Source: Selenomonadaceae bacterium (lineage in GTDB: Bacteria; Vulcanimicrobiota; Xenobia; Xenobiales; JADMJV01). From it: a stretch of DNA of 64,000 nt. Positions within the stretch are counted from its first letter, which is position 1. Each line of letters opens with the position of its first letter. The position numbers and the translations under genes are program-made. The notes under the pieces are model-generated. The model ran no database searches, was not told the DNA's origin, and saw nothing but the letters and a program-made list of their open reading frames with translations. The stretch is from assembly GCA_037189585.1 (NCBI GenBank), contig JBBCJA010000012.1, forward strand, positions 58,693 through 122,692, in the 5' to 3' direction. Below, one piece after another: positions 12,981-38,424 of the stretch.

Positions 12981-13014
12981 GGACCCTCCGCCCTCACATT
13001 GCAAGGCCGTAATC
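12981..13014. repeat. Dispersed intergenic repeat unit (copy A) directly abutting tandem array 1
   Basis: ccctcACATTGCAAGGCCGTAATC shares CACATTGCAAGGCyGTAATC with copy B at 15701-15756. Confidence 0.6.
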
Positions 13015-13026
13015 TTCGTGAAGTCA

Positions 13027-13390
13027 TTGCTATCAGCAAAACTGGCAGCACTGCCCGCTCAGAGTCCTCGCTATCAAGAAAACTGGCAGCACTGCCCGCT
13101 TAGAGTCCTCGCTATCAAGAAAACTGGCAGCACTGCCCGCTCGGATTCATTGCTATCAAAGAAAACCGGCAGCACTACCCGCTCGGATTCATTGCTATCA
13201 AGAAAACCGGCAGCACTGCCCGCTTAGAGTCCTCGCTATCAAGAAAACTGGCAGCACTGCCCGCTCGGATTCATTGCTATCAAAGAAAACCGGCAGCACT
13301 GCCCGCTTAGAGTCCTCGCTATCAAGAAAACTGGCAGCACTGCCCGCTCGGAGTCCTCGCTATCAAGAAAACTGGCAGCACTGCCCCCGC
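13027..13390. repeat. Tandem array of about 9 degenerate ~41-bp units (non-coding minisatellite-like array 1)
   Basis: The unit is GCTATCAAGAAAACTGGCAGCACTGCCCGCTyrGrkTCmTy. The period is not a multiple of 3. The array is the reverse complement of the one at 37950-38424. Confidence 0.8.
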
Positions 13391-13504
13391 GAGGTCTTCG
13401 GCCTGCTCTGAATCCGACATGACTCGGTCCTGTGGCTCTGACCACTTTAAAGACAAGGGCCCAGCTAGTGGCCGGGCCTTGTCCTACCGATGAGATGCCT
13501 TGGT

Positions 13505-14653
13505 CTAGGCGAACACGCCGCCACCGGAGGTAACTCGATTCTGGTTGTTGTTCCCAGAGGAGGGTTGTTGCATCCCCGGGGTAGTGACGTTTCCACCGCC
13601 ACCGCCGAGTTCAAGAGCCAGGCCGACCAGCTGGTGAGTTTCGGCCTTGATGCCCTGGTTCTGCTGTCCTCCGGCCTGCTGGTAGACCTGAGCCAGATTC
13701 TTGGTCAGGGCCCCGAGCGACTCTTGCCCACCACCGTTGCCGCCAAAGTTTCCTCGGCCGACGTTAGCCTGCACCGACCCACCGGCACTTCCGTTTTGTC
13801 CACCACCTAGGAAGCCTCCGAGGCCGGCTTGTGGCTGGACTTGTCCACCACCGGCGTTACCGTTTCCACCACCCGTCGCGAGGGTGATGATCTTGGTGGC
13901 CATCTGGGTCAACTGGGTGTCGAGTTGGTTGGCGCCGTTGATGGCGTTCATCGGATTGATGGCATTCGGGGCCTGTGCGGGTTGAGCAGCTTGAGCGGGC
14001 TGCGCGGCCTGAGGCTCGCCACCACCACTGGGACTTCCACCGCCGCTAGGACTTCCGCCACCCGACGATCCTTGACCTCCGGCCTGTTCTTCTTGAGCCT
14101 TGAAGTTCTCCATCAGGCCTTCGAGCAGACCCTTGATCTCTTCAATCTCCTTTTTCATATCTTCTCTTTCCCTGTCGACAGGCGGCTTCTCGTCAACAGG
14201 AGGTTTCTCGTCAACAGGCGGTTTGCCATCATCAGGCACGGGCATGATACCGTCCATTTCGTCATCGGGGTTGGGTTTTCTGGGTCCGTCCACCGGTTTG
14301 CCGTCACGAACTCGAGGGTCAGGAACGGGCTTGCCGTCGGCATCGGTGAAACCAGTGCTTTCGCGAGGGTCGAGCTCGACTATTCGGTTCTCGTCACCAG
14401 TGCGGCTTCTGCGACTCTCTGTCAGTTCGTTACTCAGGCTAACCCGATCTCCGGTAGAGGGAGACTTCGAGGTCTCCTCGCTCTTCTTGGTTTGTTGTTG
14501 AGCTTTAGGAGCTTCGGTCTTTTTGGCGGCTTCGCTCTTCTTGGGAGCTTGGGTGCGCTTGGGAGCGGACTTGACGCTGGAGCTGCTGGTTTTCTTGATC
14601 GACATAGTGGCCTCTTTCCTCGCGGGCTCGTGTCCCGTATTCTTCTTGACCAC
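13505..14653 (-). CDS. Low-complexity protein with a Lys/Ala/Pro-rich histone-H1-like N-terminus, a KPPVDE-repeat acidic middle and a Gly/Gln/Asn-rich prion-like C-terminus
   Basis: 382-aa ORF of extreme composition. AKKTEAPKAQQQTKK, then (KPPVDE)x3, then long GGQ/GGN stretches. No known catalytic motif. The start may be the internal MSIKK. Confidence 0.4.
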   Translation of the reverse strand: MVKKNTGHEPARKEATMSIKKTSSSSVKSAPKRTQAPKKSEAAKKTEAPKAQQQTKKSEETSKSPSTGDRVSLSNELTESRRSRTGDENRIVELDPRESTGFTDADGKPVPDPRVRDGKPVDGPRKPNPDDEMDGIMPVPDDGKPPVDEKPPVDEKPPVDREREDMKKEIEEIKGLLEGLMENFKAQEEQAGGQGSSGGGSPSGGGSPSGGGEPQAAQPAQAAQPAQAPNAINPMNAINGANQLDTQLTQMATKIITLATGGGNGNAGGGQVQPQAGLGGFLGGGQNGSAGGSVQANVGRGNFGGNGGGQESLGALTKNLAQVYQQAGGQQNQGIKAETHQLVGLALELGGGGGNVTTPGMQQPSSGNNNQNRVTSGGGVFA

Positions 14654-14764
14654 AAGATATCGCTTCGGTCCAAGGCGACCCCAAGATGGTCGCAGAGCTA
14701 TGTTGCGAAGTTGTTAACAGATGGACACGTTTTTGACTCAAGCAGTTCTGGAAGCTCTGAGCGA

Positions 14765-15694
14765 TCAAAGCGATGTCCTTCGGAGGACGACCAGGAGACT
14801 GGTGGAGCCCGAGCGCTCGGTCCAAAGGTCGTCAAGCTCTAGCAGCTCTCTGGTCAAGGCGATGATCAGCCGGCGATAGGCCCGCTTGAGCCAAGAACAC
14901 TTGAGAGCGCGCCTCGTCAGCCAGTCCGGTGCCGGTCCACCCTGCTTGAAATTGAGACTTTCGAACAGGCTCGCGACGGTCATGGCGTCTCTGGAGAAAA
15001 ACGGAGTGGCCGACACGAATTCCCACCGGTCATCGATATGTTCTCTCCACCAGGCGGCGCCAGGGACCAGGTTCTGCCGGCTGCTGGCGAGCTTGTCGTT
15101 GGCAAGTCTCCGGGCCAGGGCGTGCCGTCCCAAGCCTTCAGCCAGCCGTATGGTCCAGATGGAGTCGAGCCATCCGGCCGTGTTGTCGGTCAAAAGCAGT
15201 AGCCCTCCGGGGCGGAGTACCCTCGCGGCTTCCTCCATGACCGGGGAGCGCCGGTCGCTCTGATGGACCACGTTGTTGAGCCGGTAGACGTCTACCGAGT
15301 CGGCGGGAAGGGCCAGGGCCGCCGGGTCGAGCTGGTCCGAGAGTCGGCCCTCAGGAGGACTCCAGCCGAGTGACGAGGTGCCCACATTGAGACTCTCCCA
15401 CTTCGAGCCATCATCCTCGGCGGCGTACACCCGCGATTGAAGCATGAGAGTCAAGATGGGATACAAGCGGGTGGGATAGCGGGACCAAAGTTCCTCGAGA
15501 TATCCGTCGGGGGGCTCCCACAGCAGCTCGACCCGCTTTCTTGTTCGAGGAGCCAAGGCCAACAGAGCGGCGGAGTACAGTCCAGGCATGAGCAGGAGAG
15601 AAAAGGTCTTGCAGAGCCGAGCGACGGTCAGCGGAAGTTGGAGGGGAGGCCTCCCGTCGGAGGGATCAAACTTTATCAAGCCTTGGTCGACCAT
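14765..15694 (-). CDS. Class I SAM-dependent methyltransferase-like protein (type-11-like)
   Basis: Post-motif region DSVDVYRLNNVVHQSD...EEAARVLRPGGLLLL. The Gly-rich motif I is atypical. Confidence 0.45.
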   Translation of the reverse strand: MVDQGLIKFDPSDGRPPLQLPLTVARLCKTFSLLLMPGLYSAALLALAPRTRKRVELLWEPPDGYLEELWSRYPTRLYPILTLMLQSRVYAAEDDGSKWESLNVGTSSLGWSPPEGRLSDQLDPAALALPADSVDVYRLNNVVHQSDRRSPVMEEAARVLRPGGLLLLTDNTAGWLDSIWTIRLAEGLGRHALARRLANDKLASSRQNLVPGAAWWREHIDDRWEFVSATPFFSRDAMTVASLFESLNFKQGGPAPDWLTRRALKCSWLKRAYRRLIIALTRELLELDDLWTERSGSTSLLVVLRRTSL

Positions 15695-15700
15695 CCCGGT

Positions 15701-15756
15701 GAGCCTAACAGGCGCGCCTTACGACCAGCTTGCGCCCACATTGCAAGGCTGTAATC
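15701..15756. repeat. Dispersed intergenic repeat unit (copy B)
   Basis: GAGCCTAACAGgcgcgCCTTACGACCAGCTTGCGCCCACATTGCAAGGCTGTAATC. Confidence 0.6.
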
Positions 15757-15809: not shown

Positions 15810-17201
15810 ATGAAAACCTTTCGCAGCCGATTGACAACGGCCCTAGCGGGCTCTACCGCAGCCTTTCTCTCCCTCTTTTGCCTGTTGCTCTATCTCTGGT
15901 GTCGGGCGGCCTTTTTGGCCGATCTCGACGGCGACCTCGAAGCCATTCTCCGAGCCGATTTCGCCGCCCACGAGGCCCCCTCGAAAGAGCAGGCCAGGCC
16001 CGAGCGCAGGCCTCACGACAATGATGGGTCTCACCTCTTCAAGCTGCTGGTGGACCTCGAGGGCAAAGTGATGAGCTACTCAGGCCGTGACGGTGAGGCT
16101 CCTCCCGCACTGCCGCCGGGCTTGTTAAAGTCGGCTCTTCAGGGAGGTCCGACCTTCTTGGATCTGGAGTTCCACGACGATCTCTATCGAACTTTGACCA
16201 GTCCGGTGAAAGTCGACTCACGCCCCATGCTCGAGGTGCTGGGGATCTCCCAGGAACCGATGCAAGAGTCCCTGCGCGAGCTACGAAGAGTTCTTGGCGT
16301 GGCTCTTTTGGTCGGGATCGTTCTGGTCGCCCTAGTCTCCAATCGGGTCGCGGCCTACCTGACCAACCCCCTGGAACGCATCTTGAACCAACTCGAATCG
16401 GTCACCTCCACGGGGGACCCCGCCCTTCGGCTGACCGGGCGCTACGAGGACCGCGAGATGGTCGGCCTGCAGCGGCAGGTCAACGCCATGTTGGAACGGC
16501 TGGAGGCGAGCTTTCGCTCCCAGCAGCAGTTCATCTCCAACGCCTCTCACGAGCTCCGCGCGCCGCTGGCCAACTTGACCCTGGCCATCGACGTGTGTCT
16601 ACGGAGACCACGCGCCGCCCATGAGTATCGCGAGGCTTTGGAGACCTGCCTGGGCGAGACCAAGCGTCTGACGGAGATGTCCAACCAGCTCCTTCAACTG
16701 AGCAAGTCGGATGAAGGGGCTCTGGTGGTGCAGGCTGGGACCGTCGAGCTTCTTCAACTCTCTCGTTCGAGTCTCGCCCGTAAGGAGATGGCCGCCCGGG
16801 ACAAGGGAATTCGTCTGATCGTCGGTGGGGGTCAGGTAAGCTTGCCCGCGGACCCCGTGATGATCGCCCAGGTTCTGGACAACCTGCTCGACAACGCCAT
16901 CCGCTATTCTCCAGCCGGCTCCACCGTCACGGTCTTCACAGCCCGCCGGGCCTCGAGCGCCGAGATTTCGGTGAGCGACGCCGGGCCCGGCTTGAGCGCC
17001 GAGCAGATCGAGCACATTTTCGAGCGCTTCTATCGGGCCGACCCATCCCGCCAAAGGGGTACCGGAGGAACCGGCCTGGGCCTCGCCATTTCGCGAGCCA
17101 TCGCCCACGCTCACGGGGGAGAGCTGCTGGTGAAAAGCGTGCCTGGCGAGGGAACGACCTTCACCCTTCAGTTACCGCTATCCGAGCTCTCCAGCATATA
17201 G
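15810..17201 (+). CDS. Sensor histidine kinase (2 TM, HAMP-like, HisKA, HATPase_c). The likely start is the internal ATG at 15810, not the track ORF start at 15588.
   Basis: FISNASHELRAPLANL, VLDNLLDNAIRYS, DAGPGL and GTGLGLAI. The upstream part of the track ORF overlaps the opposite-strand methyltransferase gene and has no kinase features. Confidence 0.8.
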   Translation: MKTFRSRLTTALAGSTAAFLSLFCLLLYLWCRAAFLADLDGDLEAILRADFAAHEAPSKEQARPERRPHDNDGSHLFKLLVDLEGKVMSYSGRDGEAPPALPPGLLKSALQGGPTFLDLEFHDDLYRTLTSPVKVDSRPMLEVLGISQEPMQESLRELRRVLGVALLVGIVLVALVSNRVAAYLTNPLERILNQLESVTSTGDPALRLTGRYEDREMVGLQRQVNAMLERLEASFRSQQQFISNASHELRAPLANLTLAIDVCLRRPRAAHEYREALETCLGETKRLTEMSNQLLQLSKSDEGALVVQAGTVELLQLSRSSLARKEMAARDKGIRLIVGGGQVSLPADPVMIAQVLDNLLDNAIRYSPAGSTVTVFTARRASSAEISVSDAGPGLSAEQIEHIFERFYRADPSRQRGTGGTGLGLAISRAIAHAHGGELLVKSVPGEGTTFTLQLPLSELSSI

Positions 17202-17854
17202 CCCGAGCCTCGCACGGTTCGTAGCATCTCGGCGTGTTTTCCCAACTTCTTGCGCAGGTAGCCCACGTACACGTCCACCACGTTGGAATTCGGTTCGGCG
17301 TTCGACTCCCAGACCGCTTCCCAAAGTACCGTCCGGCTCACCACCTGGCGGGCCCGGCGGGCCAAAACCTCCAGAAGGTGCAGCTCGCGCGCGGTGAGCT
17401 CCAAGTGTTGCCCCTCCAGACTCGCCTCTTTGCGTAGCGGGTCCACCGTCAGAGGGCCGATGACCAGCCGGCTGTCGAGCTCTTCATTGTGGTGGAACGG
17501 GCGTCGTAGCAAGGCCCGAACACGGGCCAGCAGCTCCTCGAAGGCGAAAGGCTTGACCAGGTAGTCGTCGGCGCCCGAGTCCAGTCCGAAGACCCGATCC
17601 ACCACCGACTGCCGCCCCGATAAGATGAGAATGGGCGCCTTCAAACCCTGAGCCCTCCATTCCGAGCAGAGCTCGAAGCCATTCCGACCGGGCAGCATGA
17701 CGTCGAGAAGGATGAGATCGAACTCCTGCATGTGGACCGCCTCATCGGCCAGCTCCGCGCAACGGGCGACCTCCACCGAGTAGCCCTCCTCCGTCAGGCC
17801 GCGTCGAAGGTAGGAGGCGGTGATCGTCTCATCCTCGACGATCAAAATTTTCAT
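17168..17854 (-). CDS. OmpR-family response regulator. Start at MKILIVEDE. The last gene of the arn-like operon.
   Basis: REC domain (LILLDVMLPGRNGFEL, DDYLVKPF) plus a winged helix (VVDVYVGYLRKK). Its ATG overlaps the TGA of the LAB_N gene (ATGA). Confidence 0.8.
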   Translation of the reverse strand: MKILIVEDETITASYLRRGLTEEGYSVEVARCAELADEAVHMQEFDLILLDVMLPGRNGFELCSEWRAQGLKAPILILSGRQSVVDRVFGLDSGADDYLVKPFAFEELLARVRALLRRPFHHNEELDSRLVIGPLTVDPLRKEASLEGQHLELTARELHLLEVLARRARQVVSRTVLWEAVWESNAEPNSNVVDVYVGYLRKKLGKHAEMLRTVRGSGYMLESSDSGN

Positions 17855-18108
17855 GGGGACCTTCGCACCATCGTGAGATTGCGGATATAGATCACAAAGC
17901 CTGTCAACTGTCCCACCACAAACACCGGATCCCCCCGGTGGAGAGCGTAAACTAAAAGTCCGGCCGCGCCCAGCAAACTCCAGTACCAGAAGGAGACCGG
18001 GATGACGCTCTCCTTGCGACGCTCCGACTCGAGCCACTGAACAAGAAAGCGCATGAAAAAGCAACCCTGGGCCAACAGCCCCAGCCAGGTCCAGGCGGTC
18101 TCGCTCAT
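17851..18108 (-). CDS. Small 2-TM protein with a LAB_N (lipid-A-disaccharide synthase N-terminal-like) domain
   Basis: FMRFLVQWLESERRKESVIPVSFWYWSLLGAAGLLVYALHRGDPVFVVGQLTGFVIYIRNL matches the FxxRFxxQWxxSE...PxxFW...DPVF..GQ..G..IYxRNL pattern. The start is ATGA-coupled to the GT2 stop. Confidence 0.5.
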   Translation of the reverse strand: MSETAWTWLGLLAQGCFFMRFLVQWLESERRKESVIPVSFWYWSLLGAAGLLVYALHRGDPVFVVGQLTGFVIYIRNLTMVRRSP

Positions 18109-22128: not shown

Positions 22129-23271
22129 CTACCAGGCCACCTGGTAGCGAAGGCGCGGACCTTGAGTTCGCAAGGCCGGCCCGCTCAAGGTGTCCTTGAT
22201 CTCGTAGTTGAGCATGACCCGATGTGTCTTCGCCCGGTCGATGTGGTAGGTGATTCCCGCGACCTTGCGGTCTCGAGAGTTGCTGGCATTGTTCGGGGAC
22301 ATAGCGTCGGTACGGTCAAGATCGGGATCGAAGCGGTCGTAGGAAAGGACCAGGTCCAACGGCTCGCTAACGCGATAGACGACGATGCCCTGATATCCGA
22401 AGGCCCGAGAATCGAGCCCGGAAAACGGATTGTAACCGTCACTCCAGATCGTTTCGGCGTCCAGGCTCCAGCGACCGGACGTCCACTGAAGGTCGGTTCC
22501 CGCACGTCGAACAGGTAAGTCGAGAGTGGTGCCGTTGGGTCGAAAGGTCCCGACATGACCGGAGGCACCCAGCTTCAAGCCATCAGCTAAGTTGAAGGAG
22601 GCCCGCCCGACCAGATCATACTGATTGTTAAAGCCACCCACACCTCGGGGCTGACCCAAAAACGCTCCCAAGGTCCCCTCTCCCCAATCCCCTTTGTTGG
22701 TCACAGACAGACCGATGTCACGCTCGGGATAGAGAGCCACGGTCATATCACTGCGCTCGACCGTGTGGGTCGTGCGCGAGCTCCGCAAGCCTTCCCAACC
22801 GAAGGGAACTTTGAAGCGTCCGGCCGAGAGCTTCCATTGGTCGCTCACTCGATAGTCGAGACGCAGGTCCAAAACCTGAATCTGGCTCTCCAGAAAATCG
22901 AGATTGAGCTCGTTGAAAAGACTCCAGCGGGAATCGATCTTGAGATCGAAGGCGGTCCGGAAACGTCGGAACAAGAGACGTTCCGTCGCTGGGAAGGGTG
23001 CGATTCCGTTGGCGGCCGGGAACGCTCCGTCGGCCTTCGAGGCGCCTAGAGAGCCGCCATCGAACTGGAACTGAAAGTAACCTCGATGACGCAGCAGCAG
23101 AGTGCTCGGTGCGTTGGAGGATGGCTCCGAAGGCCTCGCTGGCATCTGATTTCGCTCGGCTAGGCAGGCGGTAGCCAGAATTCCGGCCGCCAAACCAGCG
23201 AGTAAGCTCCTGCCCGCCAAGCGAAAACAGAGTCGTCCAAATCTCGTTGCCCTCTGGCCCAAATGAAACAT
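22129..23271 (-). CDS. Outer-membrane beta-barrel porin, OprO/OprP (phosphate-selective porin O/P) family-like
   Basis: Signal peptide, alternating beta-strand pattern, C-terminal RYQVAW ending in an aromatic residue. It sits in the operon with PiT and DUF47. Confidence 0.55.
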   Translation of the reverse strand: MFHLGQRATRFGRLCFRLAGRSLLAGLAAGILATACLAERNQMPARPSEPSSNAPSTLLLRHRGYFQFQFDGGSLGASKADGAFPAANGIAPFPATERLLFRRFRTAFDLKIDSRWSLFNELNLDFLESQIQVLDLRLDYRVSDQWKLSAGRFKVPFGWEGLRSSRTTHTVERSDMTVALYPERDIGLSVTNKGDWGEGTLGAFLGQPRGVGGFNNQYDLVGRASFNLADGLKLGASGHVGTFRPNGTTLDLPVRRAGTDLQWTSGRWSLDAETIWSDGYNPFSGLDSRAFGYQGIVVYRVSEPLDLVLSYDRFDPDLDRTDAMSPNNASNSRDRKVAGITYHIDRAKTHRVMLNYEIKDTLSGPALRTQGPRLRYQVAW

Positions 23272-23277
23272 CCTGGC

Positions 23278-23333
23278 GAGCCTACCAGAGGTTTCTTACC
23301 GCGAACTTTCGCCACCATTACCGGGCTGTAATT
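23278..23333. repeat. Dispersed intergenic repeat unit (copy C) between the PiT and porin genes
   Basis: GAGCCTACCAGAGGTTTCTTACCGCGAACTTTCGCCACCATTACCGGGCTGTAATTC. Confidence 0.6.
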
Positions 23334-25021: not shown

Positions 25022-25260
25022 GTGTTTCTCCTTGGTCCGTCCTCTATCGCGGGCACGGACGGCTTAGAATCTGTTTTCAGCGAAACCGTCGTCTAGCAAA
25101 CGAAAAGTGAGCGATAATAAACTTAACGCTATGCCGTTCAGCGCGACCTAACAGACCTCACCTGGTGAAGTTCCCACTTCCAATAGCGCACTCTTTCACC
25201 ACGCACGAGCCGTAAGGTTGAGGAAAACTTCCTGCAATGTAGCTATCCTAGCTTGGGACC

Positions 25261-25840: not shown

Positions 25841-25843
25841 AGG

Positions 25844-25891
25844 GTGTATCCACCGCGGCGTGGATACATCGCCAGCTTTCGGTGGATACAC
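25844..25891. promoter_or_regulatory. 11-bp perfect inverted repeat GTGTATCCACC ... GGTGGATACAC with an internal third half-site. Candidate operator or structure upstream of gene 26002.
   Basis: GTGTATCCACCGcggcGTGGATACATcgccagctttCGGTGGATACAC, followed by an AT-rich stretch and an AGGAGA SD. Confidence 0.35.
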
Positions 25892-26001
25892 GACCCGAGT
25901 GATGAATTCTCAAATGAAACTATTTGAAGATGTTAGCAAGTTGTAACATCTGGTCATTCAGGTTCCTTTTTCATCCCATTTAGAGGAGATATCTTTTTCG
26001 T

Positions 26002-26712: not shown

Positions 26713-26719
26713 GACGGCC

Positions 26720-26775
26720 GAGCCTACCAGAAGTTCTTAAGGCGAACTTTCTTCACCACCGGATGGCCTGCCTCC
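26720..26775. repeat. Dispersed intergenic repeat unit (copy D)
   Basis: GAGCCTACCAGAAGTTCTTAAGGCGAACTTTCTTCACCACCGG is closely related to copy C. Confidence 0.55.
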
Positions 26776-26787: not shown

Positions 26788-29700
26788 CTAACCCGGATTT
26801 CTCTTGCCCAGGCGCAGGTAGAAGGCGGGTAGGAGAAACAGGCTCAGCACGGTGGAGGATGCCATGCCGCCGAGGATGACCAGCGCCATGGGGTACTCGA
26901 TCTCGTAGCCGGGAAGGTTGCCCCCCAGGGCGATGGGCAGCAGGGCCAGGATCTGAGTCAGCGCGGTCATCAGGACCGGGACGACCCTCTCACATGAGCC
27001 GCGGACCACCAGGTCCGGTCCGAAGGCGTAGCCTTCCTCCTCCTCCAGATGCCGGTAGTGACTGACCATCATGATCCCGTTGCGCGCGGCGATTCCGATG
27101 ACCGCCACGAATCCGACCAGGGAGCCGAGGGAGATGACTCCTCCTCCCCAGACGATCCCCGCCATCCCTCCGATCAAGGAGAAGGGTAAGGAGAGGAAGA
27201 TGACGGCCACCATGCGCGGCGACTCGAAGTCGGACTGCAGCAGTACCAGGATGAGGACCAGTGAAAGAATCGCCAAGGCTGAAAGACGCTTGAAGGCAGC
27301 CTCCTGAGCCTCGAACTCGCCCAGCGTTTCCGGATAGTACCCCGGTTCGAACTCCACCGACTTGAGCTTCTCGCGGATCCCCGCCGCCACACTGCCGAGG
27401 TCTTGCCCCTTGACATTGCAGGTCACGTCGATGCGGCGGGTGGCTCCTTCTCGAACGATGGCGTTGGGAGCGGAAACGATAGCGATCTCGGCCACCTCCG
27501 CTAAAGGAACTCGGTCCCCCGTGGGGGTCTCTACTAAAATCTCTCGAAGAGACTTGAGATCGCCGCGGACCGACCCTTCACTCCAGACGACCACGTCTTG
27601 GATGGCTTGCCCCTCGTAGAGCTCCCCAACCTTCAAGCCGCTGAGAAAGACGCTCTCCGCGCGCCGGATGTCCTGCTCGGTGATCCCATAGAAGGCCGCT
27701 TGCTCCGGACGCATACGAACCGAAATCTGAGGGACCAAAACTTGAGCCTCGACTTTGAGGTCGACCACCCCGGGCACTCCGGAGATGGCTGCCGCGACCT
27801 TGTGGGCCGAGTTGCGCAGGCCCTTCAACTCGGGGCCGGAGATGCGAACCACGATACTGGCATCGGCGCCGCTCAACACCTCTTTGACCCGCTCACGCAG
27901 ATAGGTGAGCACGTCGCGATGAAGGCCGGGATAGCCGTGGACCACCTCCTGAATTTTCTCCACCGTGGCGTCATAGTCGACGTTCGGCTCGATGCTGATC
28001 CAAAGCTCGGTGAAGTTGGGACCCACCACTTCGTCGGCCGCCTCGGCTCGCCCGATGTGAGCCCCGAAATTCCTGACCCCGGGGATCGACATCAGCTCTT
28101 CGCTGCCCTTGATGGTGATTCTGCGCATCGCCTCCAGGGACGTTCCCGGCTTTTCCACCCAGTGCATCAGAAAGTCGTTCTCTTTAAAGTGAGGCAAGAA
28201 CTCCTGACCGAATCGTCCGAAGGAGACGAAGGTCCCTATCAGACAGACGACGAGAAGGACCGCGGCCAGACCCGCTCTCTCCATCGTTAGAGCCAGAAGA
28301 CGACGGTAAACTTTTTGAATCCATCCTGCCAATACCCCGGTGTGGGACGAATCCGCCTCAACCTTAAGGCCCATCATGCAAAGTGCCGGTGTCACCGTGA
28401 GGGCCACCACCAAAGAGACCAGAATGGCCAGGGCGTAAGCGAAGGCTAAAGGTCGAAAGAACGCTCCGGCCAGGCCGTCCAGAAAAAACACGGGGATGAT
28501 GGTCACGATCACGATAGCGCTGGCGTAGACGATGGCCGAGCGGACCTCGACCGAAGCGTCCAGGATCACCTTCATCTTCGGCTCGGGATGCTCCAGCGCA
28601 GCGTTGAGGCGCAGGCGGCGGTTGATGTTCTCCACGTCGATGATGGCGTCGTCCACCACCGAGCCTAAAGCGATGGCGAAGCCCGCGATGACCATGGTGT
28701 TCACCGACTGCCCCATGGCGACGATAATCAGGATCGCGGCAAGTAATGAGATCGGAATGGCGACCGCGCTGATCAGAGCGCTTCTTAGGTCCGAGAGAAA
28801 GACCAGCAACACCACGACCACCATGACGCAGCCCAATCCTAGTGCCCAGGAGAGATTGTCCAGGGCCGTCTCGACGAAGGTGGCGGGTCGAAAGATGGTG
28901 GTGTCAAACTCCATGTCGGGAAGACCGGGACTCAAAGCTTGTAGGGCTTCCTCGATGCCCCGCGTGACCTCCAGGGTGTTCCCCCAAGGATACTTCTCCA
29001 CGATCAAGAGAAGGCCGGGCTGGCTGTTGATCACGGCGTCGCCGATGGCCGGCGGGGAGCCGATCTGAACCTTCGCCACGTCTCCCACCGTCACGGGGGT
29101 GCCGTTTCTGGAGGTCACCACGGCGCGGGTCAAGTCCTCGGGTGATCGAACCCAGCTCTGATGGCGAACGGGAAGGCGCTGGTTAGGGGTGTCGATGAAT
29201 CCTCCCCCACCCAGCGAGACGGCTCCGGCCACCGCGGTCATGACCTCCTGCAGGGAGACGTTCTGTTGGGCCAGGCGACGTGGTTCGACCATGACCTGGT
29301 ACTGTCGATTGTTCTGCCCCCAGATGGCGACGTTGGCCACCCCCGGCACGGCCATCAAGCGCGGACGGATGACCCAGCGGGCTGACTCGGACATCTCCAT
29401 CTGAGACAGTTTTTCAGAGGTGATACCCACCTTGAGAACTCGGCTGGTGGAGGACAACGGTGGAAGGATGACAGGCGGTCGAGCCGCCGCCGGCAGTCGC
29501 GGAGCGACCTGGGCCAGCCTCTCCTGAACGTTCTGCCTGGCAACCTCGAGATCGGCCCCGCGCTCTAAGATGAGAGTCACGGAGGAGAGTCCGAGAACCG
29601 ACTTAGAGCGCAAGGTCTCGACAAAAGGGGTGCTGGTCAGCGCGTTCTCGATGGGGATGGAGATCAGCTGCTCCATCTCTTCGGTGGATAGCCCCGGACC

Positions 29701-29856
29701 TTCCGTCTGCACCTCGACTCGAGGCGGGGCGAACTCGGGAAAGACGTCCATTTGAGAGTGTTGAAGGGAGATCACTCCCAGGCCGACCACCGCGAGTGCG
29801 GCGGTGACCACCAGGAGTCGGAAACGCATGGAGCTTTCAATCAGTGCGGCTAACAT
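26788..29856 (-). CDS. RND efflux transporter permease subunit (CzcA/CusA-like heavy-metal-efflux family)
   Basis: 1022 aa, 12 TM, two large periplasmic loops. The N-terminus [20 protein letters not shown] is typical of HME-RND. Gene order is OMF-MFP-RND. Confidence 0.85.
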
Positions 29857-31103
29857 CAGTCGTTACCAAACTCCACTCCGAAAATTTCCGCCGCCCCGTC
29901 GGCCACCACCTGAACTCCAAGCTCGGGCCCCTCGGACAACACCGCGAGACCATCTCTCAAGCTTTCGACCACGACTCGAACTCTTCGGTAGGTCTGTGGC
30001 TCGGTGCGAACGTAGACCCAGGCTCCGCCGTGAATGTCGTAGAGGATCGAAGCCGCCGGAACCACCAGGTACTGCCCCGCGCCTTTGAGAGCCAGAGTCG
30101 CCATCACGCGCTGATCGGGTCCCAAGGATTCCCGCGAGTTCTCCACCTGGTAGTAAAGATCGAAGGTCGAGGTCAACTGGTCGGCCGTGGGCGGACCCTT
30201 GACCGGTTTGGCTTGGAACTTTTTCCCCGAGACCGAGATCGCGGCGACCTCCTGGGGAAGCACCTCGGAGGCCTCGCTTTGCGGCACACGCACTCGAATC
30301 CAGAGCTGTCCCAGATCGACCAAGTCGAGCAGCGGTTGGCCGGCCGACACGGACTGGCCGGAGGAGACCATCACTCTGAGGATGGTTCCGCTCAGGGGAG
30401 CGACCTGGCTCAGCGGTGTGGGAGACCATGGTTTGGGGGCGTGGTCGACGCGCCGGATGGTCTGTTTCTCCCGTTGGGCCGCTTCCACGGTTTTTTGAGC
30501 GATGTTGCGGCGGGCCACGGCGTCGTCGACTCTTTTGCGACTCCCGACCTGTTGCTCGAAAAGCTCATTTGACCGTCGTAGCTCGATCTCGGCGGCCTCG
30601 AGCTCGGCTTCGGCCACGGCGATCCGTGTGGCGATGGCCGCGGCGCTTTGCTCCACGATGATTCGATTAGCGTTCAGCTGATCTATTTGAGCCGGGCCCA
30701 TAGCGAAGTCTCCCGCTGTTTGTAGAGGAACCAGGGAGAACAAGGACTGTCCTTTGGCCACGACGGTTCCCACCGCCAAGGGCTGGGGTCCCGTGTACTC
30801 CACCGTTCCGGCGGCCGGGGCCAGAAGCGTGGTCTGGCTCTGGGGCGGAAGCACGGTCACACCGGGATAGGTCCGGTGGTCAGAGATAGCCTGCCGCTTC
30901 GCTGGGACGACGGAGACCCCCAGGCGCTTCTCCGCCTTCTCCGTCAAACGAACGCTGGCAAGCTCCAGCTCGTCGGAGATCTGCATGACCGCGGCCGGCG
31001 GCGTCATGTGGGATGAGGGAGCGTGCGCTCCGCCTGCCCCTCCGCAACCGGACAGCGGAACAAGTGTCAATAAAGTCGCCAAAATAATTCTCACTATCAT
31101 CAA
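29856..31103 (-). CDS. RND efflux periplasmic adaptor (membrane fusion protein) lipoprotein
   Basis: Lipobox LSGCGG, a coiled-coil hairpin, and barrel-sandwich/beta-barrel regions. Its start and stop overlap the neighbouring genes. Confidence 0.8.
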   Translation of the reverse strand: MMIVRIILATLLTLVPLSGCGGAGGAHAPSSHMTPPAAVMQISDELELASVRLTEKAEKRLGVSVVPAKRQAISDHRTYPGVTVLPPQSQTTLLAPAAGTVEYTGPQPLAVGTVVAKGQSLFSLVPLQTAGDFAMGPAQIDQLNANRIIVEQSAAAIATRIAVAEAELEAAEIELRRSNELFEQQVGSRKRVDDAVARRNIAQKTVEAAQREKQTIRRVDHAPKPWSPTPLSQVAPLSGTILRVMVSSGQSVSAGQPLLDLVDLGQLWIRVRVPQSEASEVLPQEVAAISVSGKKFQAKPVKGPPTADQLTSTFDLYYQVENSRESLGPDQRVMATLALKGAGQYLVVPAASILYDIHGGAWVYVRTEPQTYRRVRVVVESLRDGLAVLSEGPELGVQVVADGAAEIFGVEFGND

Positions 31104-32365
31104 TCCTCTCTCGTGAAACGAACGTTGACCGCCAACTCCAGCTCGCCCAGGGCTCTATGCAAGAGCGCGATATCGGCTAAGAAAGCTTGGCGTTGTCGCT
31201 GCACCGACTGCCCGGCCAGCAAAACATCGGTAATGTCGCCCTGACCGAGTTCGTAGGTCTTGTGAGCCAGTTCCAGCACTCGGTCGGCCTGGGGCTGCAG
31301 CACCTGCAAATCATGGCTCACCTGGCGGCGAGCGTTTTGAAAGTTGGTCCAAGCCAGGGCCACGGCTTGCTCAGCCGCTACCAGCGTGGCCTGATGGCGA
31401 AGCAGCGCTTCTTGCTCGCGAGAGCGCGCCTGCCGCACCTCCCCACTCCGGTCACTGCCCAATGGGATCTCCACCTGCACCCCCGCCTGGTAAGTGAAAG
31501 CCGGGTAGATCGGGTCGTAGAGCAGCGCCGCCTGGAGGGAAAGGTCGGGAGATTGGTTGGCCCGGGCCAGATCCACTCGGTGGCGGGCCGTTTCTACCTG
31601 CTGAACGGCCAGGGCCAGGTCAGGCCGGTTTTCTCTGGCCAGCTCCTGAAGTGTGAACAGGTCCGGCAGGTCCCATTCCGGCCCCTCGATGGAGACTTCG
31701 GTGGGAAAGAGCGCACCGTCGCTCACCACGTCAAGCCGCATCTCGAGGGGCTGGCCCAGCAACCGGTTTAGGGTCAGAAGGGCGGTTTCCACGCGGTTCT
31801 CCGCAGGATAGATGAGGCGCTGGTTCTGCTCTTTCTCGAAGACCCCCCGAATGACATCGGCCTCGGCGATGTCGCCCGCCTGAAACCTTCGGGTCGCCGC
31901 TTCCACCAAACGATCATAAAATTCCAGGTCGCGCCGACTCTGCTCTAAGACAGCCCCCGCGATGGCGAGCTCCACGAAAGCGTTACGGGTTTGGTTCAAA
32001 ACGACCAGGCGAGCCTGAGAGCGGGAAAGCGCGGCCTCCTTGACGCCGTCCTCGGCCACCGTCACGCGGGCTCTCCGCCGCCCTCCGGTCTCTAGAGGGA
32101 CGTCGAAGGTCAGTCTCTGCTTACGCTCCGCCGGTCCGATCGGAAAGGCGTAACTCAAGCTAGGGTTCGGTCGCTGCTCGGCGATGGAGATGGCGTCTCG
32201 GGCGACCTCGATACCTTGCTCTACGACCAGGAGATCAGGGTTGCGACTCTCGGCAAGTTCCAGTGCCTGCCCCAAGGTCAAGCGCACGCCCTCCTCCGAG
32301 GGAGCGCCCATCGCTTTAGGCGGGCAGATGCCGACCAACAGAAGAAGAAAGAGAAGGAGCTTCAC
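31100..32365 (-). CDS. TolC-like outer membrane efflux factor (CzcC-like). The probable GTG start is at about 32365. The track ORF runs to 32455 and would read through repeat copy E.
   Basis: Signal-peptide-like VKLLLFLLLLVGIC follows the alternative start. There are two helical/beta-repeat halves with TolC-family patterning. Confidence 0.75.
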   Translation of the reverse strand: MKLLLFLLLLVGICPPKAMGAPSEEGVRLTLGQALELAESRNPDLLVVEQGIEVARDAISIAEQRPNPSLSYAFPIGPAERKQRLTFDVPLETGGRRRARVTVAEDGVKEAALSRSQARLVVLNQTRNAFVELAIAGAVLEQSRRDLEFYDRLVEAATRRFQAGDIAEADVIRGVFEKEQNQRLIYPAENRVETALLTLNRLLGQPLEMRLDVVSDGALFPTEVSIEGPEWDLPDLFTLQELARENRPDLALAVQQVETARHRVDLARANQSPDLSLQAALLYDPIYPAFTYQAGVQVEIPLGSDRSGEVRQARSREQEALLRHQATLVAAEQAVALAWTNFQNARRQVSHDLQVLQPQADRVLELAHKTYELGQGDITDVLLAGQSVQRQRQAFLADIALLHRALGELELAVNVRFTRED

Positions 32366-32371
32366 GCCCCC

Positions 32372-32426
32372 GAGGCTAGCAAAGCTTCCTTGCGGCCAGC
32401 TTTCGTCTATATTACGGAGCGGTAAT
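32372..32426. repeat. Dispersed intergenic repeat unit (copy E)
   Basis: GCAAAGCTTCCTTGCGGCCAGCTTTCGTCTATATTACGGAGCGGTAATC. Confidence 0.6.
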
Positions 32427-32624: not shown

Positions 32625-33539
32625 ATGAGGACAGCTCTCCTGTTACTTCTTGCTCTCTTTTTCGTGCCGCCGGCGTCTGCCCAGGGCACGCCCGAGGCCA
32701 CCGTGGAACAGTTCTACCGTGACTGGCTGGCATGGCACAGCGGCCAGGGGCAACCCAGGGAAGATTGGGTAGCCCAGCACCGCTCGTTGCTGACTCCTTC
32801 GCTCTACAAGCCTCTGCACAAAGCGCTTTCGATCCATCCCAAGTACGGCTTGCCTCCCATCGATTTCGACCCCTTCACGAGTAGCCAGGTGAGCTTTGTG
32901 AGCTATCAGGTTGGACAGGCCAAGCTGGAGGGGGACACCGCCACCGTGCCGGTCGCGATGCGCCTCCAGACCCGCGTCTCAGAGCCGGGGACGGTCCATT
33001 ACCGCAAGATGCGTCTAGAAAGAACCGGCGGTGAATGGCAAATCTCGGACATCGTCTACCGGGAGGGCTCGCAGCTCTCCAGCGTCCTGGAAAGTCTGCG
33101 CGACTGGAAGCCGGTAAAACCCAGGGTCACCAACCAGGAAGCGGTCCAACGACTCTTTGACGGCTGGCTGGCGGAGAACCGAAAAGGCCAGCCGACGCCC
33201 GGGATGACGATCGCCTTCCTAGAGCGTCATCGAGATCTGCTGGCTCCCGAGACCGCCGACCTCCTTCTCGAAGCCTTAAGAACCTCACCCCCATTGGACC
33301 GTAACCTCTTTTGTAATGGCTCCTACAGGATGGTCAGCTACCAACTCGGCACCTCCTACGGCGGTGAATCCTTCTCAGTCCAAGTGCGACGGGAGGGGAA
33401 GGACGGCCAGAGCCATGTGCAGGGGCTGATGGTGGATGCGGCGGACGGGCGAGTGACGAACGTGATTTATGGACTGCCCGACGCTAACATGCTAGAGGTA
33501 TGCCGAAAGCACCTGGACCTGGCGCGCGCGCACCCCTGA
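32625..33539 (+). CDS. Secreted protein made of two internally duplicated ~130-aa domains
   Basis: Signal peptide MRTALLLLLALFFVPPASAQG. Repeat 1 is EQFYRDWLAWHSGQGQ...HRSLLTPSLYKPL. Repeat 2 is QRLFDGWLAENRKGQP...HRDLLAPETADLL. Confidence 0.5.
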   Translation: MRTALLLLLALFFVPPASAQGTPEATVEQFYRDWLAWHSGQGQPREDWVAQHRSLLTPSLYKPLHKALSIHPKYGLPPIDFDPFTSSQVSFVSYQVGQAKLEGDTATVPVAMRLQTRVSEPGTVHYRKMRLERTGGEWQISDIVYREGSQLSSVLESLRDWKPVKPRVTNQEAVQRLFDGWLAENRKGQPTPGMTIAFLERHRDLLAPETADLLLEALRTSPPLDRNLFCNGSYRMVSYQLGTSYGGESFSVQVRREGKDGQSHVQGLMVDAADGRVTNVIYGLPDANMLEVCRKHLDLARAHP

Positions 33540-33597
33540 GGCCGGCAAAGCTTCTTTACCGCCAGCTTTCGCTTATATTAAGTTAAGGAGCGGCAAT
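33538..33597. repeat. Dispersed intergenic repeat unit (copy F)
   Basis: GGCAAAGCTTCTTTACCGCCAGCTTTCGCTTATATTAAGTTAAGGAGCGGCAATC is nearly identical to copy E. Confidence 0.6.
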
Positions 33598-35239: not shown

Positions 35240-35266
35240 TCTTGACAGAGTATCAGAGAATGAGTT

Positions 35267-35655: not shown

Positions 35656-35672
35656 TGTCCACGGCTGCTGTT

Positions 35673-36357: not shown

Positions 36358-36729
36358 ATGCTTACTGCTCTGAACAACTCACCCACCCTCGGCTCCAACT
36401 ACAAATTCGACCGCACCCAAAACTCCGACCCCGCCACCAATCCGAACCGGGCTCCCGCCGAGAGCTTCCGCTCCAGCGAATCGGTCGACGCCGGTCTGAT
36501 GCCCCGCGGATTCGCCCAGTCCAAGGATGTCGCTAAGAGCGAAGAAGCTCAGCCCACCAAAGAATCTTTCTGGGATCGCTTCGGCACCGGCGCCGGCATT
36601 GGTGCTCTCATCGGAGGCATCGCCCCAGGTGTAGTCCTTCCCTTCATCGGCTTCGCCCTGGCTCCGGTAGGAATGGCCACCGGCGCGCTGATCGGCGGAA
36701 CTGTGGCTGGTTTTTGCGGCAAAGAGTAA
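36358..36729 (+). CDS. Small glycine-zipper membrane protein
   Basis: The C-terminus GAGIGALIGGIAPGVVLPFIGFALAPVGMATGALIGGTVAGF carries GxxxG zipper motifs. An AGAGGA SD is present. A TTGATG(N9)CATCAA palindrome lies in the upstream AT-rich region. Confidence 0.5.
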   Translation: MLTALNNSPTLGSNYKFDRTQNSDPATNPNRAPAESFRSSESVDAGLMPRGFAQSKDVAKSEEAQPTKESFWDRFGTGAGIGALIGGIAPGVVLPFIGFALAPVGMATGALIGGTVAGFCGKE

Positions 36730-36770
36730 CCTTCTACTTCCACCTTTGACATAACAGACACCGGCAAGGC

Positions 36771-37892
36771 CTACTCACTGGCCGCGCTGGTGTCGGTTCT
36801 ATTTTCTGCCAAAGACTCATCGTCAAAAAGAGTCAGCTGAAGGGGTCTATCGTCGTGGAGCAGCCCGGAGAGACCGACCCCCAGAAGTCGCACCGGTCTT
36901 TGGTGATAGTCAGTCTTGCTCAAAAGTTCCATTCCCACCGCCAGGATCTCCCCAGTCGCTCGGGTGGGATGGGGCAAAGTGAAGCTACGCGTGATGGTCG
37001 AAAAGTCATCGTAGCGCAGCTTGAGAACGACGGTCGATCCACTAAGACGCGCCCGCCGGCAGCTCTCCGCGACCTCTTCAACTTGTTTGAGCAAGTGCTC
37101 ATGCAGAACCTCCGCCTCCCGGATATTCTGGGCAAAGGTGCGCTCAGTCGACAACGACTTTGCCTGCCCGCGGCGCTCGACGGGACGGTCGTCTTGCCCT
37201 CGAGCCAGTCGATAATACAAAAGTCCGGTCTTTCCGAACAGCTTGAGCGCCTCTTCCAACGACAGCGCGCGGAGCTGGGCGATGGTGTGGATCTCTAGTT
37301 TAGCCAATCGATCCACCGTGGCCGGTCCGATCCCCCAGATCCGTCCTACCGGCAAGGGGTCGAGAAATTCCCTCACCTGATCGGGCAGGACCACTGTCAA
37401 TCCGTTGGGTTTTCGCATGTCCGATGCGACCTTTGCCAAAAACTTGTTCGGTGCTACTCCAGCCGAGGCGGTGAGCCCGGTACTGTGAAAAATCTCGGCC
37501 TTGAGGTCGGCGGCCAGCCGGGTGGCGGTGATACCGAGTCGAGCCGAAGTTTCGGTTAGATCCAGGAACGCCTCGTCGATGGAGAGCGGCTCCACCAACG
37601 CGGTGTAGCGCTCGAAGATCTCCCGGACCTGGCGAGAGGTCTCCACATAGACCTCCATCCTCACGGGCTGGCGATGGAGCGGGGGACAGCGGCGGAAGGC
37701 CTCCCCCATGCTCATGGCGCTTCGGATACCATACCGCCTGGCTTCGTACGAGGCGGCCGCCACCACTCCGCGCCGGTCCTGACTTCCTCCGACCACCACA
37801 GGCAAGCCCTTAAGATGAGGGAAATCACGCTGCTCGATGGAGGCGTAAAAGGCGTCCATGTCCAGGTGGACGATCTTGCGAAGCATGCTCAA
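36771..37892 (-). CDS. dinB: DNA polymerase IV (Y-family translesion polymerase)
   Basis: IVHLDMDAFYASIEQRD, PVVVGG, SYEARRYGIRSAMS and the little-finger domain. Confidence 0.9.
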   Translation of the reverse strand: MSMLRKIVHLDMDAFYASIEQRDFPHLKGLPVVVGGSQDRRGVVAAASYEARRYGIRSAMSMGEAFRRCPPLHRQPVRMEVYVETSRQVREIFERYTALVEPLSIDEAFLDLTETSARLGITATRLAADLKAEIFHSTGLTASAGVAPNKFLAKVASDMRKPNGLTVVLPDQVREFLDPLPVGRIWGIGPATVDRLAKLEIHTIAQLRALSLEEALKLFGKTGLLYYRLARGQDDRPVERRGQAKSLSTERTFAQNIREAEVLHEHLLKQVEEVAESCRRARLSGSTVVLKLRYDDFSTITRSFTLPHPTRATGEILAVGMELLSKTDYHQRPVRLLGVGLSGLLHDDRPLQLTLFDDESLAENRTDTSAASE

Positions 37893-37932
37893 GTGTCCAT
37901 TCTGAATCAGAAATGCGATCCGAGCAAGAGAG

Positions 37933-37966
37933 TCGCCGCCAGCTTTCGCGCGGTAGCGCTGCCAGT
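37933..37966. repeat. Dispersed repeat unit (copy G) abutting tandem array 2
   Basis: GTCGCCGCCAGCTTTCGCGCGGTAGCGCTGCCAG shares the CCGCCAGCTTTCGC core with copies E, F and H. Confidence 0.5.
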
Positions 37967-38424
37967 TTTTCTGATCGCGCGCACCTCACGCGGGCAACGC
38001 TGCCAGTTTTCCTGATAGCGCGCACCTCGCACGGGCAACGCTGCCAGTTTTCTGCGATAGCGCGCCCTTCGCGCGGGCAACGCTGCCAGTTTTCTTGATA
38101 GCACGCACATCGCGCGGGCAACGCTGCCAGTTTTTCTGATAGCGCGCCCCTCACGCGGGCAACGCTGCCAGTTTTCTGCGATAGCGCGCACCTCACGCGG
38201 GCAACGCTGCCAGTTTTTTTGATAGCGCACCTCGCGCGGGTAGCGCTTCCAGTTTTTTTGATAGCGCACCTCGCGCGGGTAACGCTACCAGTTTTTTGAT
38301 AGCGCACCTCGCACGGGCAACGCTGCCAGTTTTCTGCGATAGCACGCCCCCTCGCGCGGGTAACGCTGCCAGTTTTCTGCGATAGCACGCCCCTCACGCG
38401 GGCAACGCTGCCAGTTTCCGCGAT
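37950..38424. repeat. Tandem array of about 12 degenerate ~41-bp units (array 2), the reverse-complement orientation of array 1
   Basis: The unit is GCGGGCAACGCTGCCAGTTTTyCTGATAGCGCGCACCTCrC. The reverse complement of its constant half, AAAACTGGCAGCGTTGCCCGC, differs from array 1's AAAACTGGCAGCACTGCCCGC by 2 nt. Confidence 0.8.

Follow-up and report, generated by a model that had tools for sequence, protein, structure and literature searches.

Candidate leaderless-type promoter modules and two linked minisatellite arrays in a dispersed repeat family of an uncultured Vulcanimicrobiota lineage

Introduction

What is the role of a short non-coding repeat that stands alone before several genes of a bacterial chromosome and is stacked, a few kilobases away, into long tandem arrays? 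The question is raised by a stretch of 64,000 nucleotides (nt) of a genome deposited as Selenomonadaceae bacterium and placed by GTDB in the Vulcanimicrobiota (GenBank assembly GCA_037189585.1, contig JBBCJA010000012.1, positions 58,693 to 122,692). This whole stretch is called the window, and all positions given below are positions in it. It holds single units of about 65 nt, dispersed between genes, and two arrays of a unit of about 41 bp. An earlier note on this DNA, made from the letters alone, had described them as one family of repeats and had considered a selfish element, iteron-like protein-binding arrays, or the inverted ends of a recombining segment.

As far as its sequence can tell, the best reading of the dispersed family is that of a small regulon, made up of activator-dependent promoters of the leaderless type, some of which would have arisen by copying and some of which would have decayed. 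The arrays are lineage-restricted minisatellites linked to these promoter modules, and their persistence is of interest in itself. Units and arrays thus belong to known kinds of element, namely operator-bearing promoters and minisatellites. We lean, with slightly better than even confidence, towards a fuller account in which the dispersed units are copies of a compact promoter carrying the operator of a copper/zinc-type regulator, and the arrays are by-products of the turnover of these modules.

Dispersed units as candidate promoter modules

When the three intact copies (Table 1) and two copies from a sister locus, L130, are read on the minus strand, they align without gaps in a single order: ATTACA-N4-KGYAAT, N5, CGMAAG, N5, SGYAAG, N7, TGn, TAGSCT, N7, and ATG or GTG. 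The half-sites CGMAAG and SGYAAG each come 5 nt on, with a period of 11 bp, in 5/5 of these intact copies, and the distance from TAnnnT to the start codon is exactly 7 nt in all five. In the window, the start codons concerned are those of a methyltransferase-like gene (15694), a porin gene (23271), and the first gene of a resistance-nodulation-division (RND) efflux operon (32365). The palindromic operator consensus ATTACANNNNTGTAAT, taken from the literature (PMC7380067), matches with up to two mismatches four times in the 64 kb against an expectation of 0.31; none of 100 shuffles reaches four, and all four matches lie in units or upstream of RR1, a response-regulator gene next to array 1. The pattern TGnTAnnnT-N7-ATG/GTG also occurs four times in the window, each time at the first start codon of a long open reading frame (ORF; 309, 380, 421 and 217 aa), and one of these four cases (35239) has no unit.

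Conservation follows the same blocks. Among the three intact paralogues, 29 of the 40 motif positions are invariant as against 5 of the 24 spacer positions (p = 8e-5), and in the L130 orthologue of the copy at 15692-15755 the motif positions are identical throughout (40/40) as against 19/24 in the spacers (p = 0.006), both p-values being optimistic because the block boundaries were drawn after inspection of the sequence. The non-coding flank of L130 beyond the box is identical at 24 of 54 positions. Ribosome-binding sites of the GGAGG type are present before other genes of the window and this, together with the fixed TGnTAnnnT-N7-start layout, makes the modules look like leaderless promoters: the start codon falls 7 nt past the -10 element, where transcription would be expected to start (6-8 nt), without a Shine-Dalgarno sequence.

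A search with an nhmmer profile finds five full units of about 65 nt, at 15701, 23278, 26720, 32372 and 33538, all of them plus-strand matches with E-values of 3e-12 to 2e-17. It finds no further full unit in the window, and a further 8 kb to the left of it holds none. The copy at 33533 is 83% identical to that at 32367-32414, and other pairs are 63-67% identical to the reference copy, a similarity of which part may be shared motif and not shared descent. The earlier note had counted at least seven single units. Five of them stand as full copies, and those at 12981 and 37933 are fragments. In the former region the palindromic part is present (12998-13013), with 19/20 identities to the copy at 15740-15755; the latter shares the exact 14-mer CCGCCAGCTTTCGC (37936-37949) with 33559-33572. 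A piece at 25869, which the note had listed as a fragment, is at the level of chance (two mismatches to the 14-mer, about one such match being expected; nhmmer E = 9.3). That all copies are intergenic is mostly true, except that three units end at a start codon and one begins in the last codons of ORF 32625-33539.

A scan for the sigma-70 consensus found a -35/-10 pair in none of the units, as one would expect if the promoter lacks a -35. Single units fold with z-scores of -1.35 to +0.56, and the energy of the consensus structure is about -0.7 kcal/mol on either strand, which amounts to no conserved RNA structure. The earlier note had recognised no described family, and this view stands: Rfam gives no match even at E <= 1, and a viral contig scan and BLAST against plasmid and phage collections give none. 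Three other kinds of site were tried by eye and rejected. In a sigma-54 promoter the spacing from TGGCA to TTGC, as read in the array core, would be 3 nt short; for a promoter of the extracytoplasmic-function (ECF) sigma type, the -10 shows no conserved CGT; and although the in-phase half-sites recall the direct-repeat box of the PmrA type (PMC3973317), the copper/zinc subfamily is the better match for the inverted repeat. As a separate observation, the minus-strand gene at 34586-35239 is preceded (35239-35262) by TGA-TACTCT, 7 nt and ATG with no operator, an independent example of the promoter type found in the units.

From this anatomy we infer that the module is an activator-dependent promoter of the minus strand. 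Most distal would be a 16-bp 6-4-6 inverted repeat (ATTACA-N4-TGTAAT-like), followed by the two half-sites in helical phase (CGMAAG, SGYAAG), 7 nt, an extended -10 (TGn-TAGSCT), 7 nt and the start codon; this last distance implies messages that would be leaderless or nearly so. A local two-component system of the heavy-metal type would bind the box and recruit RNA polymerase to promoters that have no -35, and the three intact copies would drive the methyltransferase-like operon, the porin gene and the czcCBA-like efflux operon. The two other full copies would be decayed relics, of which that at 33532-33597 would have been left beside ORF 32625-33539 as this gene was gained or lost by unit-to-unit recombination.

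Candidates for such a regulator are close at hand, as two two-component systems (RR1 with the sensor kinase HK1, and RR2 with HK2) lie inside the same variable island of about 26 kb as the units. The best family of both response regulators and both kinases is the heavy-metal two-component subfamily, always at scores below the NCBIfam cutoffs, which makes the assignment approximate: 247.5 bits for RR1 and 202.8 for RR2 against TIGR01387 (cutoff 279), with 195 for RR2 against PmrA, and 176 for HK1 and 280 for HK2 against TIGR01386 (292.6). The box upstream of RR1, 49 nt before its ATG and 8 bp from array 1, suggests autoregulation. RR2 and HK2 seem the likelier pair to bind the box, because the sister lineage is without RR1 and HK1 yet keeps the box.

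Several points weigh against the promoter reading and what it says of the arrays. Apart from the optimistic p-values, the three intact copies are homologous, so that their 7-nt spacing has not been confirmed independently three times. With transcription starting at the start codon, the centre of the box would lie at about -53.5, as against -43.5 for the box of AgrR, a regulator of Cupriavidus metallidurans, and the module fragments by RR1 and dinB have no -10 in register. The best NCBIfam matches of the regulators are all below the curated cutoffs, and the second-best of RR2 is PmrA. For the arrays, the homology to the units consists of one alignment, which includes a GC-rich run, plus adjacency. 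Moreover, conservation is far higher in the array cores than in the linkers, and the sister lineage has kept at the same site a unit whose palindrome is stronger, both of which mean that the arrays could be functional and not by-products.

The tandem arrays

Tandem Repeats Finder places array 1 at 13022-13386 (period 41, 8.9 copies, 88% matches) and array 2 at 37946-38417 (period 41, 11.6 copies, 86% matches), and gives higher-order periods of 83 and 124 bp in both. The array 2 unit is the reverse complement of the array 1 unit, with GCGTTGCCCGC and another linker. The two arrays are 24.5 kb apart in inverted orientation and 72-82% complementary over up to 224 nt, and the longest exact stretch common to them is 21 bp. 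Repeat finding and inverted-repeat pairing thus bear out the earlier description of two inverted arrays of about 9 and about 12 units. The arrays were also rightly called non-coding and distinct from clustered regularly interspaced short palindromic repeats (CRISPR): the period is not a multiple of 3, a 190-aa mechanical ORF spanning array 2 has no Pfam match, and it is the whole 41-bp unit that repeats, the supposed spacer halves being near-identical within each array. When the units are read by eye, the arrays agree almost completely in a core of about 29 nt and have diverged in the 12-nt linker. The last unit of array 1 (13358-13395) retains a tail like that of array 2. Head-to-tail, non-coding units of 10-100 bp with unit variants and higher-order structure are features of a minisatellite, and the arrays have all of them; they would be candidate variable-number tandem repeats (VNTRs), which differ in copy number between strains.

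The arrays also appear in other data. In Logan SRR27999909, an independent short-read assembly of one sample, contigs of the window strain end within the first unit at the outer edge of each array. The arrays are therefore not an artefact of a single assembly. Short-read contigs of a sister lineage (GNAT protein 96% identical) break within the first unit as well (five of six, see below). Array 1 is placed between a terminator-like hairpin (13478-13458, 3' of a 382-aa ORF) and the promoter region of RR1, and array 2 between the stop codon of the GNAT gene (38438) and the start of dinB (37886).

How the arrays relate to the single copies can be seen from their borders and from one alignment. A module fragment adjoins each array on its left side, facing the downstream gene (RR1 or dinB); that beside array 2 touches the array and is 48 nt ahead of the dinB ATG. 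With z = 5.5, the array 2 consensus can be aligned to 33523-33551, the promoter-proximal part of a decayed copy plus flank, and in a hand alignment the remainder of its unit matches the GCCAG-TTTC segment that follows, after removal of 8 nt. Together with the shared 14-mer, these observations uphold the physical and sequence link between arrays and single copies that had been proposed. The array unit itself has neither operator nor -10. Apart from the module fragments, no homology was found between the flanks of array 1 and array 2, and an origin of the arrays by inverted segmental duplication was rejected for this reason.

On the reading of the arrays as by-products of module turnover, the array 2 unit would be derived from the promoter-proximal part of the module at 33532-33597, with an internal deletion of 8 nt, and the arrays would have grown by duplication of several units at a time. 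The 83- and 124-bp periods and the array-2-like tail in the last unit of array 1 point to growth by unequal exchange from founder units that had already diverged.

Table 1. Repeat units, arrays and associated loci in the window
Feature	Position	Strand	Description
RR1 (12280-12948) and sensor kinase HK1 (10919-12202)	10919..12948	-	OmpR-family two-component system; best families TIGR01387, TIGR01386
Operator-type 6-4-6 inverted repeat alone	12998..13013	-	ATTACGGCCTTGCAAT; ATTACANNNNTGTAAT with 2 mismatches
Array 1	13022..13395	+	9 units of 41-42 bp: GCTATCAAGAAAACTGGCAGCACTGCCCGC plus 12-nt variable linker
Intact promoter module	15692..15755	-	Box, CGCAAG, CGTAAG, TGT, TAGGCT, 7 nt, ATG of methyltransferase-like gene 14765-15694; divergent from HK2 gene (ATG at 15810)
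HK2 (15810-17201, +) and RR2 (17168-17854, -)	15810..18064	.	An ArnT/ArnC-like glycosyltransferase operon ends with RR2
Intact promoter module	23269..23332	-	Ends at ATG (porin O/P-family gene 22129-23271); takes up the spacer behind the PiT (PHO4) gene
Decayed module	26714..26773	-	TGG-TAGGCT and CTTAAG/AGAAAG half-sites kept; box lost; no start codon after it; between two convergent gene ends
RND efflux operon	26788..32365	-	Order outer-membrane factor, adaptor, permease (C-B-A)
Intact promoter module	32363..32426	-	Ends at GTG of the outer-membrane-factor gene of the RND efflux operon
Decayed module	33532..33597	-	Box split by 5-nt duplication (CTTAA); -10 degenerate (CGGCCT); overlaps stop codon of ORF 32625-33539; closest copy to the array unit
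Module fragment	37919..37949	-	GCGAAAGCTGGCGG; between array 2 and dinB leader
Array 2	37946..38426	-	12 units of 38-43 bp; orientation as in the single units

Comparison with relatives

The sister locus L130 (about 86-90% nucleotide identity) is collinear with window positions 9080-36129 and carries the orthologue of the unit at 15701. Where the window has a unit, ORF 32625-33539 and a second unit, L130 has one hybrid unit, a clean unit-to-unit difference, and it has no counterpart of the unit at 26720. The breakpoints of its other differences fall within genes: the RND operon has an internal deletion, most of the porin gene is missing, and 10897-15438 is replaced. One of the six differences from L130 thus coincides with units. 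It may be added that at L130 1569-1892 and 4781-4815 the RND operon is cut down to the last 104 residues of the permease, beside porin remnants and a truncated methyltransferase gene; such decayed island genes suggest ongoing gene loss in this sister lineage.

Two more distant loci, L144 and L142, have about 75% nucleotide identity, with DinB 86% and GNAT 90% identical. In both, the stop codon of GNAT and the start of dinB are at most 37 bp apart (probably about 4 bp) with no array between, which indicates that array 2 and its leader (about 545 bp) were inserted in the lineage of the window. The distance from Memo to dinB is 0.86 kb in L144, with a PIN-domain toxin-antitoxin-like pair between, as against 25.9 kb in the window; it follows that window positions 10911-36770 (about 25.9 kb), which hold array 1 and every single unit, are a variable island. 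In L142, dinB lies next to the kinase/regulator/glycosyltransferase block, which is inverted there. Neither the island ends (10911, 36770) nor the breakpoints of the L142 inversion coincide with the arrays. In strains whose PiT is at least 90% identical, the PiT gene is followed by a terminator, with neither porin nor unit. Two side observations concern the same junctions. The GNAT gene of L142 is truncated by an IS21-family element, and a perfect palindrome, TTCTGAATCAGAA, lies at 37901-37913, between array 2 and the start codon of dinB, and may be an SOS (LexA-type) operator of this phylum; L142 and L144 are entirely without the leader that holds it.

Six contigs, each from a different sample, represent the sister lineage whose GNAT is 96% identical. 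Of these, five stop 51 nt past the GNAT stop codon, inside a unit of the family (GCTATCAAGAAAAACGGGCAGTGCTGCCCG), and the sixth stops at 23 nt, before the unit. These contig ends argue that a unit occupied the site after GNAT before the window and sister lineages split, and probably an array was there too. The sister-lineage unit contains the palindrome CGGGCAG-TG-CTGCCCG (7+7 nt), and when it is read in reverse it gives a hairpin of -10 kcal/mol followed by TTTTTCTT.

The pattern AAAACTGGCAGCNNTGCCCGC has eight single matches, about the number expected by chance, in 185,579 species-representative genomes, a set in which the source genome is not included. In a metagenome scan with a two-core gapped pattern, which was too permissive, an array was present in none of the matches listed (at least 120 loci), which bears little on whether it is absent elsewhere. 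Two exact-protein look-ups returned no match.

Alternative explanations

The explanation by a REP/MITE-like element (repetitive extragenic palindrome or miniature inverted-repeat transposable element), selfish or neutral, which spreads into intergenic spacers and seeds satellite arrays, is in our estimate rather improbable. The copies are indeed short, intergenic and confined to one lineage, some of them lie between convergent gene ends (26720, 33538), the chance-level matches among the species representatives are as expected of a young selfish family, and one gene-sized indel falls exactly between two units. However, the hairpin is neither stable nor conserved, which, with the near-zero consensus energy, the fold z-scores and the single orientation, takes most of the force from this suggestion of the earlier note. 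The copies were read by eye, with no search aimed at such features, and neither terminal inverted repeats nor duplicated target sites were seen; their ends (GAGCC... and ...GTAATC) do not form an inverted repeat, as those of a MITE do. The ORFs scanned against Pfam and NCBIfam include no transposase domain, REP-associated or of another kind. All five copies (5/5) have one orientation and are confined to 18 kb of the about 72 kb sampled, three of them stop exactly 7 nt plus the -10 element before a start codon, and their block-wise conservation matches a known operator.

Recombination offers two further accounts, and to each of them we give very little credence. One takes the arrays as the inverted termini of a flipping segment of about 24.5 kb, as raised earlier, or as the ends of a mobile island. 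It has in its favor that the arrays are inverted repeats of 370-480 bp, that the Memo-dinB interval is variable (0.86 kb in L144 versus 25.9 kb), and that the kinase-to-glycosyltransferase block is inverted relative to dinB in L142. Against it, the boundaries are elsewhere: array 1 lies 2.1 kb inside and array 2 lies 1.2 kb outside the island, the inversion breakpoints of L142 are near 15.7 and 36.8 kb, away from the arrays, and from 9 to 36 kb the window and L130 are collinear. The array flanks are without common homology, the perfect identity between the arrays goes no further than 21 bp, and the island ORFs scanned yielded no domain of an integrase or a transposase. The other account, equally hard to credit, is that the units are cassette recombination sites comparable to integron attC, with one unit, always in the same orientation, closing each gene module. 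Seven consecutive gene modules do have, as judged by eye, a unit or an array at their right-hand end, and at one place the window and L130 differ by exactly ORF 32625-33539 and one unit, L130 having a single hybrid unit; but this one clean case is explained by homologous recombination between direct repeats that are 83% identical, and the other differences from L130 have their ends within genes and away from units. The modules hold more than one gene each and do not share one orientation, the units have no paired inverted core sites, with no folded structure found, and the ORFs scanned (Pfam/NCBIfam) include no integrase domain.

Two proposals give the arrays a function of their own. The arrays might be an iteron-like landing pad for a dimeric protein on CNGGCAG-NN-CTGCCCG every 41 bp (about 4 helical turns), or a stack of weak terminators, which would insulate or tune the promoters of RR1 and dinB; we regard this as unlikely, though it deserves some weight. 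It would account for the contrast between the near-identical core of about 29 nt and the diverged 12-nt linker, and for the improvement of the palindrome to 7+7 nt in the sister-lineage unit at the GNAT-proximal site. In reverse, each unit reads as a GC hairpin with TTTTTCTT behind it, the energy being -10 kcal/mol for the unit of the sister lineage; a terminator scan flags one array 2 unit, and each array is directly upstream of a promoter region. Yet the core conservation is explicable by recent amplification from two founders plus gene conversion, the hairpins of the window units have 4-5 bp only, and the fold z-scores are not significant. The two arrays also face opposite ways relative to their downstream genes, so that one directional function, such as termination, cannot serve both. 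No candidate binding protein or replication gene is found among the annotated neighbours; iterons sit next to an origin or initiator gene, whereas here no replication gene is annotated nearby and there is no plasmid or phage similarity. The iteron-like explanation of the earlier note thus falls away for the dispersed units and may apply to the arrays only. The second proposal, which we consider doubtful, is that the arrays are length-variable control stacks of promoter pieces, either protein-binding or terminator-like, whose copy number would set the expression of RR1, as a metal-sensing regulator, and of dinB, an error-prone polymerase gene, making up a contingency locus through which envelope or metal stress is coupled to mutagenesis; array 2 would then have split dinB from an ancestral GNAT-dinB operon.

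Gene neighbourhood and other repeats

The region is chromosomal, with ordinary gene content. The nearest named relatives of the window proteins are in Vulcanimicrobiota/Candidatus Eremiobacteraeota metagenome-assembled genomes (MAGs); PiT, for example, is 71% identical to that of a Vulcanimicrobiota MAG and 61% to that of Candidatus Xenobium. The best family of the RND permease is CusA/CzcA (TIGR00914, 634.8 bits against a cutoff of 701), and the adaptor also matches CzcB/NccB. Both decayed modules (26714-26773 and 33532-33597) point into the 3' ends of plus-strand genes. The remaining genes include the 382-aa ORF, the methyltransferase-like gene, the porin of the O/P family, PiT, a PhoU-like gene, unknown ORFs, dinB, the GNAT gene and an RlmL-like gene.

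Several smaller features were recorded along the way. The 382-aa ORF (13505-14653), which has no family match, is of low complexity and possibly secreted; it has 18-bp (6-codon) tandem repeats at 13970-14550 and is co-oriented with the methyltransferase-like gene downstream of the module at 15692-15755. A 980-bp spacer of lower GC content (25022-26001) holds three copies of GTGGATACA/TGTATCCAC (25850-25905), two of which form a hairpin with a 9-bp stem, TGTATCCAC-CGCGGC-GTGGATACA; their core, TATCCAC, resembles a DnaA box. The sequence GCGTGGATACATCGTCAG occurs in L130 at a different junction (about L130 1860-1900) and may belong to a second small repeat family. The RlmL-like ORF (39316-41241) has an N-terminal coding tandem repeat of 39 bp (13 codons) in about 10 copies (40694-41109). 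A 514-aa ORF (59971-61515) has a weak local match to the model of the RNA-guided endonuclease IscB (E = 2.7e-9, residues 402-464 only), probably an HNH-type domain, and just past it are two 44-nt direct repeats, 91% identical and 48 nt apart (61552-61643). A 45-nt direct repeat (89% identical) lies at 1457-1501 and 2830-2874, 1.4 kb apart, near a gene with an HTTM domain.

Significance

If the promoter reading is true, it gives the first concrete promoter/operator model for a member of the uncultured Vulcanimicrobiota/Eremiobacterota, with an extended -10, leaderless starts and a box of the CopR/CusR/CzcR type, and it defines a small metal or envelope regulon. It would also be a clean case of promoter reuse, in which one module stands before unrelated genes and decayed copies mediate the gain and loss of genes, and it suggests that a decayed promoter copy can seed minisatellites. 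There is a practical side to the arrays as well, since they break every short-read assembly of the lineage at the same two points.

Comparison with known systems

The closest relatives of the proposed operator are found among the copper/silver/zinc regulators of the OmpR family. AgrR of Cupriavidus metallidurans binds ATKACANNNNTGTMAT at promoters with a good -10 and no -35, and its targets include the promoter of its own gene, the czc and cop genes and an ompC-like porin (PMC7380067). In Pseudomonas, CusR, CopR and CzcR share a GTAAT half-site, in ATTCATnnATGTAAT, CTGACAn5GTAAT and GAAACn6GTAAT, respectively (PMC11195947). The box of the modules is of the operator type of CopR, CusR, CzcR, PcoR, AgrR and HprR. 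Like the AgrR and CusR operators, it is a 16-bp 6-4-6 imperfect inverted repeat with ATTACA/TGTAAT arms and extra in-phase half-sites; as in their promoters, there is a reasonable -10 and no -35, and a site lies before the gene of a candidate regulator; and as in their regulons, a porin and a CBA-type metal-efflux system are among the apparent targets, with candidate cognate two-component systems adjacent. The differences are equally clear. The present case comes from an uncultured phylum, Vulcanimicrobiota/Eremiobacterota, for which both binding and metal response are predictions. The module box is one helical turn further upstream than that of AgrR, with two half-sites in the gap. The start codon follows 7 nt past the -10, and it is the whole 65-nt module, not the box alone, that is common to some copies.

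As dispersed elements, the units may be compared with the putative mobile promoters of Matus-Garcia, Nijveen and van Passel (2012), which are upstream regions of 50-100 nt with at least 80% identity (PMC3488235). The likeness is that homologous upstream regions of 50-100 nt stand before non-homologous genes in one genome, and that some of them are orphaned; but of the window copies only the pair 32367/33533 reaches the required 80%, at 83%, the others being 63-67% identical. With REP elements, bacterial interspersed mosaic elements (BIMEs) and MITEs the units share that they are short, intergenic and repeated, and they differ from them in having no stable imperfect palindrome, a single orientation, and a fixed register to start codons. 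The arrays, for their part, are like bacterial minisatellites or VNTRs in consisting of head-to-tail, non-coding 41-bp units with higher-order periods, located upstream of genes and found in one lineage. What sets them apart from the usual minisatellites is that two arrays of the same family lie inverted 24.5 kb apart, that both are flanked by pieces of a promoter module, and that the unit of array 2 is probably derived from such a piece.

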